Sequence record: NC_054649.1
Reading direction: 5' to 3' (one strand)
Origin: Escherichia phage vB_EcoS_swi2
DNA length: 47,611 nucleotides
Shown here piece by piece: positions 10,334 to 45,001 of the stretch; within the stretch, counting starts at the first letter, position 1, and each line of letters starts with the position of its first letter. A program made the position numbers and the translations under genes. Under the pieces are notes generated by a model that was given only the letters and a program-made list of their open reading frames with translations, was not told the origin of the DNA and did not search any database.

Positions 10334-10362
10334 TTGACACCTGCTAGGTGGTGATGTAGATT
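10334..10362 (+). promoter_or_regulatory. Sigma70-type promoter TTGACA-N17-TAGATT
   Basis: -35 TTGACA 10334-10339, 17 nt spacer ending gtgatg, -10 TAGATT 10357-10362; 35 nt upstream of ORF 10398. Confidence 0.6.
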
Positions 10363-11876: not shown

Positions 11877-12344
11877 GTATTTCAGATAGTTTTCGTGAGC
11901 GACTTTGCGGACTTTTTAGAAACTGATCACAAAGATAAATGCAAACGAAGAAATGTATCTGGCCGTAGCTTAACAGCTAAACACAAGTGAGGTATTCCAG
12001 TTCCTCATCAACGAATCTTGCGCACTGGCCCGGTGTGATTAATAATGGGCACACAACGGAAAGAGCATTACTGGTGACGGAGACTAGCGATTAGCTATAT
12101 GCGAAAGTTCTAGAAGCCAAGGCGGTTCGACTCCGCAAGTGCTCTTTCCGGTGTGGTGAATGCGCAGGCTGATGCGCGCAGGAGAGCTTCGGAAGAACAA
12201 GGTGCCTGTATACAAGCCGGAGATCAGCACCGGCCACCACAATACTTAACATCCAGCATTATCGCAATCATATGTAGGGGTATGTATGGGTTACGGGGCT
12301 GGATGTTAAGAAAGCACGCTGGCAATGCTTAAACCAGCACTTAT

Positions 12345-12421
12345 GGACGCGTAGCTTAATTGGTTAAAGCAACCGACTCATAATCGGCTGATTGAAGGTT
12401 CAAATCCGTCCGTGTCCACCA
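12345..12421 (+). tRNA. tRNA-Met (anticodon CAT; could alternatively be Ile2-type)
   Basis: Acceptor GGACGCG pairs with CGTGTCC, D-stem GCTT/AAGC, anticodon loop CTCATAA, T-loop TTCAAAT, 3-prime CCA encoded; terminator follows. Confidence 0.75.
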
Positions 12422-15713: not shown

Positions 15714-15742
15714 GTTGACGTAGATTTGTGTGGAGTTTATAG
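15714..15742 (+). promoter_or_regulatory. Sigma70-type promoter TTGACG-N17-TATAGT
   Basis: TTGACGTAGATT then -10 TATAGT 15737-15742; second copy of GTGACGTAGAAAC motif just downstream. Confidence 0.55.
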
Positions 15743-15784
15743 TTAGTGACGTAGAAACAACAATAAATGTTAGAGGTGAGTGAT

Positions 15785-16093
15785 ATGAAAGATGAATTTA
15801 AAGGCACAAAAGGTCAGTGGACCAATCATTCTTTATTTACTGGTGAAGCGCGTACATCAATTTGGTCTGGTGATATTTATGTAGCAGAAGTAATGAGTGT
15901 TAGGGAGTCAGAATCGGTGAAGAAGGCTAACTCAAATATTATCGCTGCAGCGCCAGAATTACTCGAAGCACTTCGCCAGCTTCGCGATTATGTTGAGGAT
16001 GTTTGCGCAGTATCGTCTGATGATTGCCATGAGGAACACCCATTAAATCTGGCAAACAAAGCAATCAAGAAAGCATTAGGAAAGAAGCAATGA
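15785..16093 (+). CDS. Hypothetical protein, paralog of 28232..28525
   Basis: Shares EFKGT-G-W N-terminus and IAA-P-LL-AL-QL central motif with 28232..28525; GAGGTGA RBS. Confidence 0.5.
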   Translation: MKDEFKGTKGQWTNHSLFTGEARTSIWSGDIYVAEVMSVRESESVKKANSNIIAAAPELLEALRQLRDYVEDVCAVSSDDCHEEHPLNLANKAIKKALGKKQ

Positions 16094-16899
16094 AAACACT
16101 AAGCAAAATCTATTCAGACAAAGAAACGCGCAACGGTATCGCAGTCAACAAAACCTACCTCGTGCCAGTGGAGCAAATCTATCTGGAGCCGGGATACAAC
16201 ATCCGTGAAGCAGATGAGCAGCACGTTGAATATTTCGCACAGTGCTGGGAATCAGGTCAGCCACTGCCAGCATTAACAGTTATTCCTGACGAGAAGGGGA
16301 TACGCATTCTTGATGGTCAGCATCGCTATCTCGGCGCATTGCGTGCCATTGAGCGTGGCGCACCAATCGCTCGTATTGAGTGCAAGGATTTCACTGGCGA
16401 TGAGGCGGACAAAATTGCCTTCATGGTGTCATCCAGTCAGGGTAAGCAGCTTGACCCGTTTGAACGCGCAAAGGCTTACACACGACTGAAAGGCTTTGGC
16501 TGGACTAACGAGGAAATCGCCAAGAAGGTAGGTCGCTCAGTATCTGACGTGCAAATGCACCTGTCGCTGGGTGATGTTCCGGCCGAAGTAAAAGCACGCA
16601 TCAGTGCAGGACAAATCAGCTATGCAAACGCCGTAGCGGTAACGCGTGAGCATGGCGACGATGCGGTTAAAGTCATCGACGAGGCAGTAGAAGAAGCCAA
16701 AGCACAAGGTAAGGACAAGGTCACAGCGAAGGTGCTGAAGTCGAAAAAGATTAAGCCAGTAGACCGCCTGATTGAGCTGTTGAAGCAAGCAGATCACGTG
16801 ATTCTCCCTGCTGGTCATTTTGTGGCAGAGGATGAGGAATTTATCCAGATTCCTGTTGCTGATATTCACGAGGTCATGGCAATTCTGGAGAAGATGTGA
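16090..16899 (+). CDS. ParB-like N-terminal domain protein with HTH
   Basis: ILDGQHRYLGA motif (ParB/sulfiredoxin-type) and HTH-like WTNEEIAKKVGRSVSDV; ATGA overlap with upstream gene. Confidence 0.65.
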   Translation: MKTLSKIYSDKETRNGIAVNKTYLVPVEQIYLEPGYNIREADEQHVEYFAQCWESGQPLPALTVIPDEKGIRILDGQHRYLGALRAIERGAPIARIECKDFTGDEADKIAFMVSSSQGKQLDPFERAKAYTRLKGFGWTNEEIAKKVGRSVSDVQMHLSLGDVPAEVKARISAGQISYANAVAVTREHGDDAVKVIDEAVEEAKAQGKDKVTAKVLKSKKIKPVDRLIELLKQADHVILPAGHFVAEDEEFIQIPVADIHEVMAILEKM

Positions 16900-17102
16900 T
16901 GAATGAGCATGATGATAAATTAATTGCAGGATGGGGCGACCCATTACTGGCTAAGAAAGTTCACTATTTCCGTGATGGGAAGATTATCAGTGAATGTGGA
17001 AAGTGGATGTTTGGCGGTGAAAGAGAAGATATATCAGCATGGAAGCATGACGCAATATGCAAACAGTGTCTCAAGAAGTACGAGAAGATGGAGAAAATGT
17101 GA
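16896..17102 (+). CDS. Small Cys-containing hypothetical protein
   Basis: 68 aa ORF with C-x17-C-x2-C spacing, overlapping stops. Confidence 0.35.
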   Translation: MMNEHDDKLIAGWGDPLLAKKVHYFRDGKIISECGKWMFGGEREDISAWKHDAICKQCLKKYEKMEKM

Positions 17103-17353
17103 TGAGCAAGTATGAAAAACTTGATTCGATGATTATGGATATTCTTGATTTCAAAATTCCGACGCCATTCATGGCAATTCATTTTTCTGATGGCATCCAT
17201 AGTGGCATATACGCAGAGTGTGAAAAGCTGGCAACAAAACCACATGAGGGATTTCGAGTCCTTGATCGCCGACTTCAGGCGTTGCGAAAGAAAGGTCTCA
17301 TCTTATCGCATGGAGCAAGTAAAGGATGGGTGAAGATAAATCATGAACGCTGA
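17102..17353 (+). CDS. Hypothetical protein
   Basis: ATG overlapping upstream stop. Confidence 0.35.
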   Translation: MSKYEKLDSMIMDILDFKIPTPFMAIHFSDGIHSGIYAECEKLATKPHEGFRVLDRRLQALRKKGLILSHGASKGWVKINHER

Positions 17354-17516
17354 ACAATTCATCGAAAAACAACTTCGCGCCAAGCTGCCTGACATCGACC
17401 AGATGGCAATTGATGCGGCGATTCAGTACTACAAGCGCAATCAGAGCGCTAAGAAGGGCGGCATTTTTGAAGAATGCCTGAAGGTTGCAAAACAGCACAT
17501 GATTAAGGTGAAGTGA
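17343..17516 (+). CDS. Small hypothetical protein
   Basis: 57 aa ORF not in track; stop overlaps start of next gene. Confidence 0.3.
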   Translation: MNAEQFIEKQLRAKLPDIDQMAIDAAIQYYKRNQSAKKGGIFEECLKVAKQHMIKVK

Positions 17517-18052
17517 TGAAACTAAAAATCAGCAAATTATTACTTGAATCAGCATTAATCTTTCAGGCGCGCAATGATGTGCGATATTACCTGAATGGAA
17601 TCTGCTTTATGCCTGATGGTCGCATTGCCTCAACTGACGGTCATCGTGCGTTTATTGGTGGAAACCATGATAATAATCTGACAGAAAATGTGATTATCAA
17701 GATTGGCAAGTCACCAACAAAGCGTTATGAGCACGCCATCATTGATACAAAGTCGAAAATTGCAACGTATCATAATGAAGCTGGCGTGATGGTTGGCGCT
17801 GGTATCTGCGAAGAGATTGATGGTCGATTCCCTGACATTGACCGCGTGATACCAAAAGAAACAAAAGCAGCAGATGAAATTGGCTTCAATGCTGGCTATC
17901 TGGTTGATATCGAGAAAGCTGCGAAGCTGTTTAATCCTAAATTCTGTGGCGTCAAATTTGAACTGAAGGGAAATACAAATGCCGCAGTTTGCTGCCTTAG
18001 CGCGCCATCTGGCGAGACTGCGAAGATTGTTGTTATGCCGATGCGCCTGTAG
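17516..18052 (+). CDS. Truncated DNA polymerase III beta sliding clamp (DnaN) homolog
   Basis: 178 aa; NDVRYYLNGICF...TDGHRAF, DGRFPDIDRVIPK and C-terminal IVVMPMRL match E. coli DnaN domain II, the II-III linker and the extreme C-terminus; domain I is absent. Confidence 0.75.
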   Translation: MKLKISKLLLESALIFQARNDVRYYLNGICFMPDGRIASTDGHRAFIGGNHDNNLTENVIIKIGKSPTKRYEHAIIDTKSKIATYHNEAGVMVGAGICEEIDGRFPDIDRVIPKETKAADEIGFNAGYLVDIEKAAKLFNPKFCGVKFELKGNTNAAVCCLSAPSGETAKIVVMPMRL

Positions 18053-18056
18053 CAAT

Positions 18057-18085
18057 AAAAGCCCCTTTACGGGGCTTTTCTTTTA
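18057..18085. terminator. Bidirectional terminator hairpin
   Basis: aaaagcccc ttta cggggctttt plus T-run, between convergent genes. Confidence 0.6.
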
Positions 18086-24698: not shown

Positions 24699-24735
24699 TT
24701 CCACATCACCTTTTCCGTTGTGGTACAATCTACGT

Positions 24736-24773
24736 CAATAAGTATTGACTAAGTGATGTAGAAACGTCAAGAT
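24736..24773 (+). promoter_or_regulatory. Promoter-like region with conserved GTGATGTAGAAA motif
   Basis: TTGACT 24745-24750 and GTGATGTAGAAAC 24753-24765; exact -35/-10 assignment ambiguous. Confidence 0.35.
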
Positions 24774-27736: not shown

Positions 27737-27765
27737 ATTGACGTAGATTGAGTGGTGGTGCATAG
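27737..27765 (+). promoter_or_regulatory. Sigma70-type promoter TTGACG-N17-CATAGT
   Basis: TTGACGTAGATT followed 11 nt later by CATAGT; same architecture as 15714..15742. Confidence 0.5.
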
Positions 27766-27798
27766 TATCTACATCAAATGGTGAGTGAGGTGGTGGAT

Positions 27799-28077
27799 AT
27801 GTGTGATTGCATGAACAAAATGGAAGAGTTACTGAAGGAAAGATTGATGGAGCGCGTGCCAAGCGGTTCGGAGGTGAGTTCTAATGTTTTTGACAAAACT
27901 GGTTGGGATAATCAATTCATTAGCCTTTCGTCAGGAAAGGTTTTTGTGATGCTCAAATACAGGCTAGCATACAGGGCAAGAAAGAAAAACGGAGAACTGG
28001 CTAAAAACTTAACAAGATTGGAGTCTAACGTAAAAATGTCATACTGCCCATTTTGTGGCGAGAAGCAGGTGGATTAA
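27799..28077 (+). CDS. Zinc-ribbon hypothetical protein
   Basis: CDC near N-terminus and CPFCG near C-terminus; GAGGTGGTGG RBS. Confidence 0.4.
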   Translation: MCDCMNKMEELLKERLMERVPSGSEVSSNVFDKTGWDNQFISLSSGKVFVMLKYRLAYRARKKNGELAKNLTRLESNVKMSYCPFCGEKQVD

Positions 28078-28079
28078 AC

Positions 28080-28223
28080 ATGGTAATGGTCAAATTCAAA
28101 GAAAACGGACGCTGCGGAGTATTCGGTCTTAAGCAAATCAAAATCCGTCCGTGCGGCAAGGTGATCGCGCCATTTGGTCTTGTGCAGATGCGTGAAGTTG
28201 AGATTGTTGAATATATCAAGTGA
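28080..28223 (+). CDS. Small hypothetical protein
   Basis: 47 aa ORF not in track, fills gap between flanking genes. Confidence 0.3.
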   Translation: MVMVKFKENGRCGVFGLKQIKIRPCGKVIAPFGLVQMREVEIVEYIK

Positions 28224-28231
28224 GGTTGGTG

Positions 28232-28525
28232 ATGGAAGAATTTAAAGGCACGCATGGCCCGTGGAATTACTGTGCTGATGAGCCGGATTGGGTTACAGAT
28301 AGCAATGACAATATAGCGGTAGCAAGGGTCACTCGTTACAACGCGGATGCGGAAGCTCAACATGCAAACGCAAAGCTGATAGCAGCATCTCCTGACCTGC
28401 TCTCAGCACTCCAGCAACTACTGGAAATCTACGACGATAACTCCGGAAAAGTCTGGACAACATCAAGCAAGCGTCGCGCTCTGGATAATGCGCGCGAGGC
28501 GGTTAATAAAGCGTTGGGAGAATAA
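28232..28525 (+). CDS. Hypothetical protein, paralog of 15785..16093
   Basis: Shared EFKGT-G-W and IAA-P-LL-AL-QL motifs. Confidence 0.5.
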   Translation: MEEFKGTHGPWNYCADEPDWVTDSNDNIAVARVTRYNADAEAQHANAKLIAASPDLLSALQQLLEIYDDNSGKVWTTSSKRRALDNAREAVNKALGE

Positions 28526-28748
28526 TTATGTGGCTTGTATTTAATATTGGATGAATCGAATGCGGTGTTTCATCAAATGTTGTTGCTGTTTATCCAACTG
28601 AACAGGAGGCTAATGCGGTGGCTAAAAAACTGAATGAGGTTCACTCATGGCGAGAAGGAGGCCAAAACTCGTATGAGGTATTTAAGCTGGGTGATCTGTA
28701 CGAGGTTGAGGGTGAATATAAAGAAATACTTTCTGATGGAGAAACAAA

Positions 28749-29399
28749 ATGAAACTTATTGACCTGTTAGTTAAAGAATTGCCTAAGCGTGGTGGGTGGC
28801 CTCAAAACTCGCTGTCAATTACTCAAGATAATGACGGTTCACTGTGCGTATGGGACACGAATGACCCACACTACGAAGGGTTCTCATGGAAACACCACAC
28901 TGGCAATAGTCTTATGCATTTCTGGTGCGAAGAAGCGGCCATGCCATTATCTTCCGACCACAAGGAGTCAATAGTAACCTACTGGCAATACAAAGCAGCA
29001 CTCGCCGCATCGCAAAAGCCAACATGGGACGGCGAAGGTCTTCCGCCAGTTGGTGCAAAAGTAGAATTCTTCATTAATCCAAAGTTCGGATACCGCAATG
29101 CCTGGATTCCTGATGCTGGCACTGAAATGGAAGTTGTAGCGCACAAAACAACAACTGACGGGAACGATGTTGCTGTTTGCTATTGGGATGATGGTGGCGC
29201 TGGTCGGTCATGCTGCTTCATACCGGAAAGCCTAAAACCACTACGCACAGAAGCAGAAAGGAGGCGCGACGCATTTATAAATGCAGTTCTTGATGGTATG
29301 CGCGTAATCCCTTGTGATTTGTCGTTGCGTGATGAGGTTGCTGTTATTTACGACGCCATCGCAGCAGGAAAAATTCCCGGCGTGAAACTGGATGATTAA
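28749..29399 (+). CDS. Hypothetical protein
   Basis: 216 aa ORF followed by terminator. Confidence 0.45.
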   Translation: MKLIDLLVKELPKRGGWPQNSLSITQDNDGSLCVWDTNDPHYEGFSWKHHTGNSLMHFWCEEAAMPLSSDHKESIVTYWQYKAALAASQKPTWDGEGLPPVGAKVEFFINPKFGYRNAWIPDAGTEMEVVAHKTTTDGNDVAVCYWDDGGAGRSCCFIPESLKPLRTEAERRRDAFINAVLDGMRVIPCDLSLRDEVAVIYDAIAAGKIPGVKLDD

Positions 29400-29477
29400 A
29401 ACAATATTCAGCGTCGTAGAGATATTGTGCTATGCGATAATAATATTTGTTCTGTGCATGCTGATAAGATAAAGCAA

Positions 29478-29503
29478 AGCCCTCACTTAGAGGGCTTTTT
29501 GTT
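29478..29503. terminator. Bidirectional terminator hairpin
   Basis: agccctc actta gagggct followed by TTTTT. Confidence 0.55.
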
Positions 29504-38257: not shown

Positions 38258-38286
38258 AATCTACATCAACGATGATTCTACGTCAA
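38258..38286 (-). promoter_or_regulatory. Sigma70-type promoter on minus strand, TTGACG-N17-TAGATT
   Basis: Minus strand reads TTGACGTAGAATCATCGTTGATGTAGATT; drives leftward early genes. Confidence 0.6.
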
Positions 38287-44580: not shown

Positions 44581-44983
44581 TAGCGGTATATGGGTATTTG
44601 ATAGCGGTTATCGCGGAGAATGCCCAAAAGAGGAGATCGACCAGATGGGTTACGGTACATGGATGCAACACCGTTTCCCTGATGTTCTGTGGTTTCACGT
44701 CCCGAATGAAACAGGAACATCCAGCCGCGTCCAGTTCGTACTGAAGCGCCAGAAGATGGGTGTTAAGACTGGAATAGGCGACAATGTGATAATGACGCCT
44801 GGAGTGAAGCACACTTGCGGAATGATTGAGGCAAAGCGCCGCGATAAAAGCAAAAGCAGAGTGAGCAAGGAGCAATCTACTGTATTAACTGAGATGTGCA
44901 GGCTTGGTCATTATGCCGCAATAGCTTATGGGCTTGATGAATTAAAAAAAGCTACTTTATTCTATTTTGGACTTGATGAATGA
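44567..44983 (+). CDS. VRR-NUC domain nuclease
   Basis: GTG start with AAAGGGG RBS; PD-(D/E)XK-like core with conserved Glu and Lys; adjacent to SF2 helicase. Confidence 0.6.
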   Translation: MKQLDSGIWVFDSGYRGECPKEEIDQMGYGTWMQHRFPDVLWFHVPNETGTSSRVQFVLKRQKMGVKTGIGDNVIMTPGVKHTCGMIEAKRRDKSKSRVSKEQSTVLTEMCRLGHYAAIAYGLDELKKATLFYFGLDE

Positions 44984-45001
44984 CGTAGATTGATGTAGAT
45001 T
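44973..45001 (+). promoter_or_regulatory. Sigma70-type promoter TTGATG-N17-TAGATT
   Basis: Two tandem TGA(C/T)GTAGATT motifs; -10 TAGATT 44996-45001. Confidence 0.45.

Follow-up and report, generated by a model that had tools for sequence, protein, structure and literature searches.

Two diverged paralogues from a very large family of phage accessory proteins with a mosaic build

In T4-type internal proteins (IPI, IPII, IPIII and their relatives) the N-terminal targeting sequence is constant and the body behind it polymorphic, and some of these proteins act in anti-restriction. The two phage proteins described here, A and B, resemble them in having a short constant N-terminus, a differing body, and several paralogues per genome. 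However, the hinge and C-terminal tail of A and B are also constant, there is no homology to the T4-type proteins, and there is no evidence of packaging or proteolytic processing. Variable proteins of DGRs and polymorphic toxin/immunity cassettes are a second comparison, since in them, too, hypervariability is confined to one part of an otherwise constant scaffold, a part thought to determine binding specificity. A and B differ from DGR targets in the wholesale replacement of sections by unrelated sequence rather than adenine-directed point mutagenesis, and from the toxin/immunity cassettes in lacking a toxin partner. A DGR target gene was considered and rejected: the window has no template repeat, and in a blastn search of it with A and B the only match was 31 nt between the two genes, at their N-terminal codons. 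The third comparison is with the lambdoid pL genes (ral and P22 gene 17) and phrog_14587, which occupy the same or alternative positions and are likewise small, early-transcribed, non-essential-looking and variable between relatives. These have no sequence or fold similarity to A and B, and the likeness is positional only.

The window, which is the whole 47,611-nucleotide stretch of DNA that was analysed, is ~90% identical over long stretches to phages Sf11, Sa179lw, C1, IME207, Akira and BASEL Bas77-81. By sequence it is a siphovirus of the Skatevirus cluster, which has been described in PMC11990801. Gene A (15785..16093, + strand) encodes 102 aa with a pI of 5.9, and gene B (28232..28525, + strand) encodes 97 aa with a pI of 4.8. 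Both open reading frames were confirmed. Gene A starts at an ATG with a GAGGTGA ribosome-binding site 5–8 nt upstream, and its stop codon overlaps the ATG of the next gene, which is ParB-like, at 16090. Gene B starts at an ATG with a GAGG ribosome-binding site and begins 8 nt past the stop codon of the preceding gene.

An earlier note on this DNA had proposed A and B as a paralogous pair that shares EFKGT-G-W and NA-IAA-P-LL-AL-QL motifs, on the proviso that their alignment might prove non-significant. BLASTP aligned them at E = 8e-13; across the 98 columns, which span both proteins, 34% of positions are identical and 52% positive. Both match PHROG 1273 end to end, A over residues 2–101 (E 1.8e-18) and B over residues 1–97 (E 4.4e-23). 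The quoted motifs are present in both as an N-terminal (D/E)EFKGTxGxW and a central AN..(I/L)IAA.P.LL.AL.QL. A family HMM run on all six-frame ORFs of the window found exactly two copies, A and B, and no third. That the similarity reflects chance or low complexity, or that the reading frames are not genes, has a negligible probability. The short length of the proteins is the sole point in favour of it, whereas the full-length alignment score, hundreds of full-length homologues whose ribosome-binding sites mark the same start, confident AF2 folds, and conserved cassette types indicating purifying selection all stand against it.

The nearest full-length relatives of A among sequenced phages are in Kagunavirus (66–73% identity), where they form a solitary plus-strand insert between head-morphogenesis and portal genes. 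As a whole gene, A is rare within its own phage group, and a blastn search of complete E. coli genomes with gene A gave no match. The nearest relatives of B are orthologues, 88–96% identical, in other Skatevirus-cluster phages. Given the 34% identity of the pair, their different C-terminal cassettes (type 10 in A, type 0 in B) and the much closer relatives of each in other phages, A and B are old, long-diverged paralogues kept at two slots, and a recent duplication is unsupported. The earlier note had offered duplication or modular exchange. Modular exchange holds, even inside the genes, as set out below, whereas recent duplication within the genome finds no support, given the low identity and the closer relatives elsewhere.

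Searches with A and B returned hundreds of full-length proteins of ~90–125 aa, all labelled PF27050. The label, precomputed and named Phage_P22_Y8K6, is carried by homologues that reach 96% identity to A and to B. The founding member of PF27050 was located as P22 orf78 (NP_059602.1, 78 aa). It was matched at E 3.5e-13, over the hinge and tail, by an HMM of A, B and 47 homologues. P22 orf78 resembles A and B in its hinge (AAPELLEAL), its tail (AIGKALGK), its similar length and its place in an early accessory operon; it differs in being shorter, at 78 aa, and in lacking the FKGTxGPW N-terminal frame. A profile of 49 diverse members found 1,386 clusters at 50% identity with E ≤ 1e-10 and 65,710 with E ≤ 1e-3, the latter count calling for caution because the profile is partly a short alanine-/leucine-rich helix. 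The family would have at least the former number of such clusters, and possibly tens of thousands. Family proteins are soluble and mostly acidic, with a median pI of 5.0. The homologues are all named 'hypothetical' at source, and together with the PHROG 1273 match this agrees with the earlier description of a small-protein family without assigned function.

A and B are almost certainly members of a very large family of phage accessory proteins of ~100 residues that are built as mosaics. The family occurs in virulent and temperate phages, enterobacterial and beyond, and has been in the P22 sequence for decades. A and B thus join an already-known family, and what is new here is the cassette structure within the gene, the link to P22 orf78, and the behaviour of the slots. 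Scans of A and B against Pfam-A (a copy without PF27050), NCBIfam and PADLOC gave zero matches, with PADLOC and Pfam read at E ≤ 1. A literature search on PF27050, phrog_1273, the family sequence motifs and P22 orf78 found nothing. A contig scan with a very narrow peptide pattern gave 16 loci, mostly Enterobacterales prophages plus two in Bacteroidota, and says little on overall breadth because of the narrowness of the pattern. Three annotations among the homologues were rejected. The 'Ead/Ea22-like' (PF13935) label of a Yersinia phage P400 homologue has no Pfam match at E ≤ 1 for A, B or the P400 protein. An apparent fusion to a 'VirE domain protein' in Salmonella phage 40 (L083, 2234–2800) is an artefact of extending the ORF upstream past the Met at which family members start. 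An apparent fusion to an 'Efflux RND transporter permease subunit' in phage EF2-1 (PQ571290.1) is a mis-annotated family member.

For analysis of the mosaic, 226 homologues were split at conserved motifs into five parts: an N-terminal frame (MxEFKGTxGPW), a middle section, a hinge (NAxLIAAAPELLEAL), a C-terminal section and a tail (AIxKALG). In gene A (+ strand) these are the constant frame MKDEFKGTKGQW (15785..15820), the variable middle cassette (15821..15925; residues 13–47, with three predicted beta strands), the constant hinge ANSNIIAAAPELLEAL (15926..15973; end of helix 1, an invariant Pro and start of helix 2), a C-terminal cassette of type 10, RQLRDYVEDVCAVSSDDCHEEHPLNLANK (15974..16060), and the constant tail AIKKALGKKQ with the stop codon (16061..16093). 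The type 10 cassette is held in common with Sf11. In gene B (+ strand) the corresponding parts are the frame MEEFKGTHGPW (28232..28264), a type 0 middle cassette (28265..28363; residues 12–44), the hinge ANAKLIAASPDLLSAL (28364..28411), a type 0 C-terminal cassette, QQLLEIYDDNSGKVWTTSSKRRALDNARE (28412..28498), which is the usual type at slot B, and the tail AVNKALGE with the stop codon (28499..28525).

The variable sections of the 226 homologues fall into 39 unrelated middle types and 11 C-terminal types. The middle type of B pairs with 10 C-terminal types, and the C-terminal type of A occurs with ~30 middle types. In 24.8% of 24,976 pairs the C-terminal sections are ≥70% identical and the middles ≤30%; the reverse holds in 2.3%. 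The same pattern is visible in DNA of close relatives. At slot A, identity to Sf11 is 23–41% at 15830–15950 and 83–100% in the flanks and at 15980–16093, and one more relative differs in both variable sections. Relatives at slot B are ~75–100% identical across 28080–28260 and 28380–28525, and in four of them (L005, L006, L008 and L010) identity drops to 20–60% between 28260 and 28380. Inside both genes the breakpoints are sharp and fall where the frame segments end. A Cys-/His-rich cassette (ADIRGGCAAVY...DDTPGCH...) is found at slot B (L011 and L012), at slot A (L081) and together with the C-terminal type of A (P0171); its presence in both slots indicates that cassettes move between them. As judged from these alignments, the variable sections have been replaced wholesale by recombination within the gene, among close relatives, between slots and across unrelated phage groups. 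A lone middle cassette, searched for occurrence outside the family, returned a single fragment.

Each cassette type is well conserved across many genes, yet reassorts freely among phages that infect the same host genus. The conservation indicates that cassettes are under selection and not drifting. Conservation of the frames lies at the protein level and not in the DNA, with synonymous sites of frame codons varying freely across 82 genes. The strong form of the idea that frame segments serve as DNA recombination handles was rejected on this variation and on the 31 nt that A and B have in common.

AF2 models of A (pLDDT 86.2, pTM 0.74) and B (pLDDT 86.4, pTM 0.76) are alike in order. Each has an N-terminal arm, three short strands formed by the middle cassette, and three helices (beta3-alpha3). 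The invariant proline lies at the junction of helices 1 and 2, and the C-terminal cassette runs from the end of helix 2 through the loop into the start of helix 3. No membrane segment or HTH was predicted in A or B. Structure searches found no solved structure with a similar fold, a PDB sequence profile search gave nothing meaningful, and BFVD matches were only to uncharacterised phage proteins of the same type. Two distant metagenomic members, P0297 and P0320, carry the hinge-to-tail half in tandem, with two copies of LIAAAPxLLxAL...AIAKATG. This hints that the hinge-to-tail half may be an independent folding or association unit.

P54, L56, L60, K93 and A94 are invariant among the 49 diverse members. 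Most conserved residues are hydrophobic or Gly/Pro, which matches expectation for a folding core and argues against the constant frame binding a conserved ligand or partner, for instance as a sponge for a small signal, with the variable sections as decoration or tuning of oligomerisation. The few conserved polar residues (K5, T7 and K93) cluster in the co-conserved N- and C-terminal frames, the size and acidity are like those of known sponges, and the tandem repeats of P0297 and P0320 would also suit such a role. However, the cassette types are themselves conserved and so selected rather than drifting, fold searches matched neither the Tad nor the Acb sponges (CmTad1, E 3.4), and P22 orf78 lacks the FKGT frame. 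Binding by the frame is on balance quite unlikely.

Operons A and B are small plus-strand islands amid minus-strand structural and lysis blocks. Each runs from a host-type (sigma-70-like) promoter to a terminator, separate from the other. The operon A promoter (15715..15743, +) has TTGACG and TATAGT with 17 nt between them and 10 of 12 consensus matches; its -35 lies within TTGACGTAGATT, and a further copy of this 12-mer, GACGTAGAA, is 34 nt downstream. The operon B promoter (27738..27766, +) has TTGACG and CATAGT, again 17 nt apart, with the same TTGACGTAGATT and an inverted copy whose end is at 27777. If up to 2 mismatches are allowed, the window has 15 occurrences of the 12-mer where 3.9 are expected, and 0 of 100 shuffles reached 15. 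The earlier note had placed the genes in separate plus-strand blocks behind a conserved promoter, and the exact TTGACGTAGATT in the -35 region at 15715 and 27738 bears this out. It had also described both as heading their operons, each as the first or an early gene; A is indeed the first gene, and B is the third and so does not head its operon.

The remainder of operon A after gene A (16090..18052, +) encodes a ParB/KorB-like HTH protein (16090..16899), three small ORFs without assigned function (16896..17102, 17099..17353 and 17343..17516) and a 179-aa protein (17513..18052) with matches to phrog_3007 and phrog_947. An intrinsic terminator-like hairpin (18057..18079, +) closes the operon. In operon B (+ strand), two genes precede B (27799..28223), encoding a 92-aa phrog_7033 protein with a C-terminal CPFCG and a 47-aa phrog_21280 protein, and a 44-aa ORF and a 216-aa phrog_7798 protein follow it (28618..29399). 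A bidirectional terminator-like hairpin (29476..29498) lies between operon B and a convergent head-morphogenesis gene.

A 10-mer, TGAYGTAGAT, occurs in direct, tandem or inverted pairs at several operon starts, overlapping or adjoining the -35 hexamer. The pair sites are at 15715–15760, 24727–24770 (-), 27738–27777, 38258–38286 (-) and 44980–45001, with a weaker one at 10351. They look like a candidate common operator of a phage regulator, and the KorB/ParB-like HTH protein (16090..16899) is the obvious candidate for a regulator acting there.

Slot A is an accessory slot between the promoter and the ParB-like gene, and its occupant varies among close relatives. Sf11 (L001) has a different family member, C1 (L104) a 49-aa ORF, IME207 (L105) a DUF551 protein of the same type as P22 orf87, and Sa179lw (L106) an 86-aa, very acidic phrog_14587 'anti-restriction protein' together with a 62-aa ORF. 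These occupants bear on whether A might be a regulatory or replication helper internal to the phage, for example a partner of the downstream ParB/KorB-like protein in the style of KorA and KorB. The overlap of the A stop codon with the ParB-like start codon, a ParB-like gene following a family member in 7 of 80 viral loci, and the possible operator motif common to operons are in keeping with a helper role. Against it, B and most family members are not adjacent to ParB, and C1, IME207 and Sa179lw have unrelated genes upstream of the same ParB-like gene. The predicted fold also lacks an HTH and the protein is acidic. A helper role is therefore very unlikely, and a KorA-like partner of KorB/ParB, taken as a specific candidate, was rejected on the same absence of conserved pairing in the three phages, of an HTH in the models, and on acidity.

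In P22 the early-left operon runs 24(N), ral, orf78, orf87, 17, c3, and in the lambdoid phages Dewey and mEp213 a family member lies between N and cIII. The intervals from ral to gene 17 in P22 and from N to cIII in lambdoid phages are classic sites of early host-interference genes. According to its annotation, P22 gene 17 permits growth on Fels-2 lysogens. At the 80 viral loci, the neighbours show no enrichment of known anti-defence genes, and most of them lack an assigned function. In the description given by Silas et al., accessory genes antagonise host defences or other viruses; these authors independently chose the Akira slot-B orthologue (QBZ71465.1, UDP0110) as an accessory gene for their screen library. 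The main text of the Silas et al. preprint and that of the follow-up paper mention no phenotype for it. Skatevirus-cluster phages, which carry the PF27050 family, are reported to be markedly sensitive to restriction-modification systems and Old (PMC11990801).

Taken together, the promoter-proximal position, the P22 and lambdoid intervals, the alternative occupants of slot A, the choice made by Silas et al., and the conserved yet reassorting cassettes are the basis for reading A and B as interference proteins. From position and evolution they may tentatively be regarded as early proteins that interfere with the host or with other phages, their specificity set by cassettes; the probability of this is well below even. 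Against this reading stand the unenriched neighbourhoods, the silence of both main texts on a phenotype for the Akira gene and the reported sensitivity of these phages to restriction-modification and Old. In addition, neither A nor B resembles, in sequence or in fold, the characterised anti-defence proteins searched, including Ocr, ArdA, Ral, Tad, Acb and Acr. Cassette swapping itself suggests that A and B may bind fast-changing targets of the host or of rival phages.

The best combined explanation, to which we give slightly less than an even chance, joins a mosaic scaffold, early expression, and cassettes specific for targets that vary between strains. Under this explanation the genes would be transcribed early by host RNA polymerase, as the promoter consensus and gene position alone indicate. 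The scaffold, comprising the FKGTxGPW arm, the proline-kinked NAxLIAAAPELLEAL helix and the C-terminal AIxKALG helix, would supply folding and perhaps also a common partner or self-association. It carries two sections that exchange independently, the beta 'head' of three strands and the distal end of the hairpin formed by helices 2 and 3. The free reassortment of the two cassettes counts against one composite binding surface. The cassettes would give specificity for targets that vary among host strains; proteins of host defence or exclusion are the most plausible of these, and two copies with different cassettes would broaden the range of targets.

The proteins could instead act in competition between phages, on co-infecting or resident phages rather than on chromosomal defence systems, through exclusion or escape from prophage exclusion, with cassettes tracking phage targets. 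The place of the P22 member between ral and gene 17, with its Fels-2 annotation, fits such a role, as do the travel of whole genes and cassettes between unrelated phage groups with common hosts and the antagonism of other viruses described by Silas et al. However, the protein is soluble and without a membrane segment, unlike many exclusion proteins, and inter-phage competition differs from the combined explanation only in the identity of the target. It is considered unlikely.

Returning to cassettes directed at strain-variable host targets, a constant frame with swappable cassettes gives a concrete, testable handle on a very large family. If the cassettes encode specificity, swaps should alter a host-range or immunity phenotype; were this borne out, the family would be a rich source of small specific inhibitors, and otherwise A and B are ordinary accessory genes. 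A bolder and fairly unlikely extension is that phages retain this scaffold as a small, stable frame of three helices and shuffle its beta-sheet head and helical tip among genes, slots and unrelated phages. The result would be a population-wide library of small binders against strain-variable host immune or exclusion proteins, of which the window would hold two differently loaded copies.

Several observations concern the neighbouring genes. In the close relatives compared, unrelated sequence stands in place of the first gene of operon B (27799–28077, zinc-ribbon-like CPFCG). In most of them the stretch behind B (28530–28740) is replaced as well, though in L006 it is 86–100% identical. With both the gene before B and the stretch after it replaced in relatives, the whole of operon B is a patchwork. 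The 216-aa protein (28749–29399) has a conserved start, MKLIDLLVKELP; its N-terminus partly matches phrog_26870 and its centre phrog_3483, and this phrog_7798 protein may itself be modular. No other gene is found downstream of the family as often (12 of 80 viral loci), an association that may be inherited because many of those loci are in related phages. In operon A, annotations of relatives of the 179-aa protein (17513–18052) conflict, naming a RusA-like resolvase, a DNA polymerase and a DNA polymerase III beta subunit. The protein has a strong phrog_3007 match, a weak match to a processivity-factor PHROG, and no Pfam family. Elsewhere in the window, a tmRNA called by ARAGORN at 12047–12421 overlaps a tRNA-Met at 12345–12421 and is probably spurious; Sf11 has tRNA-Ser and tRNA-Arg at the corresponding place.
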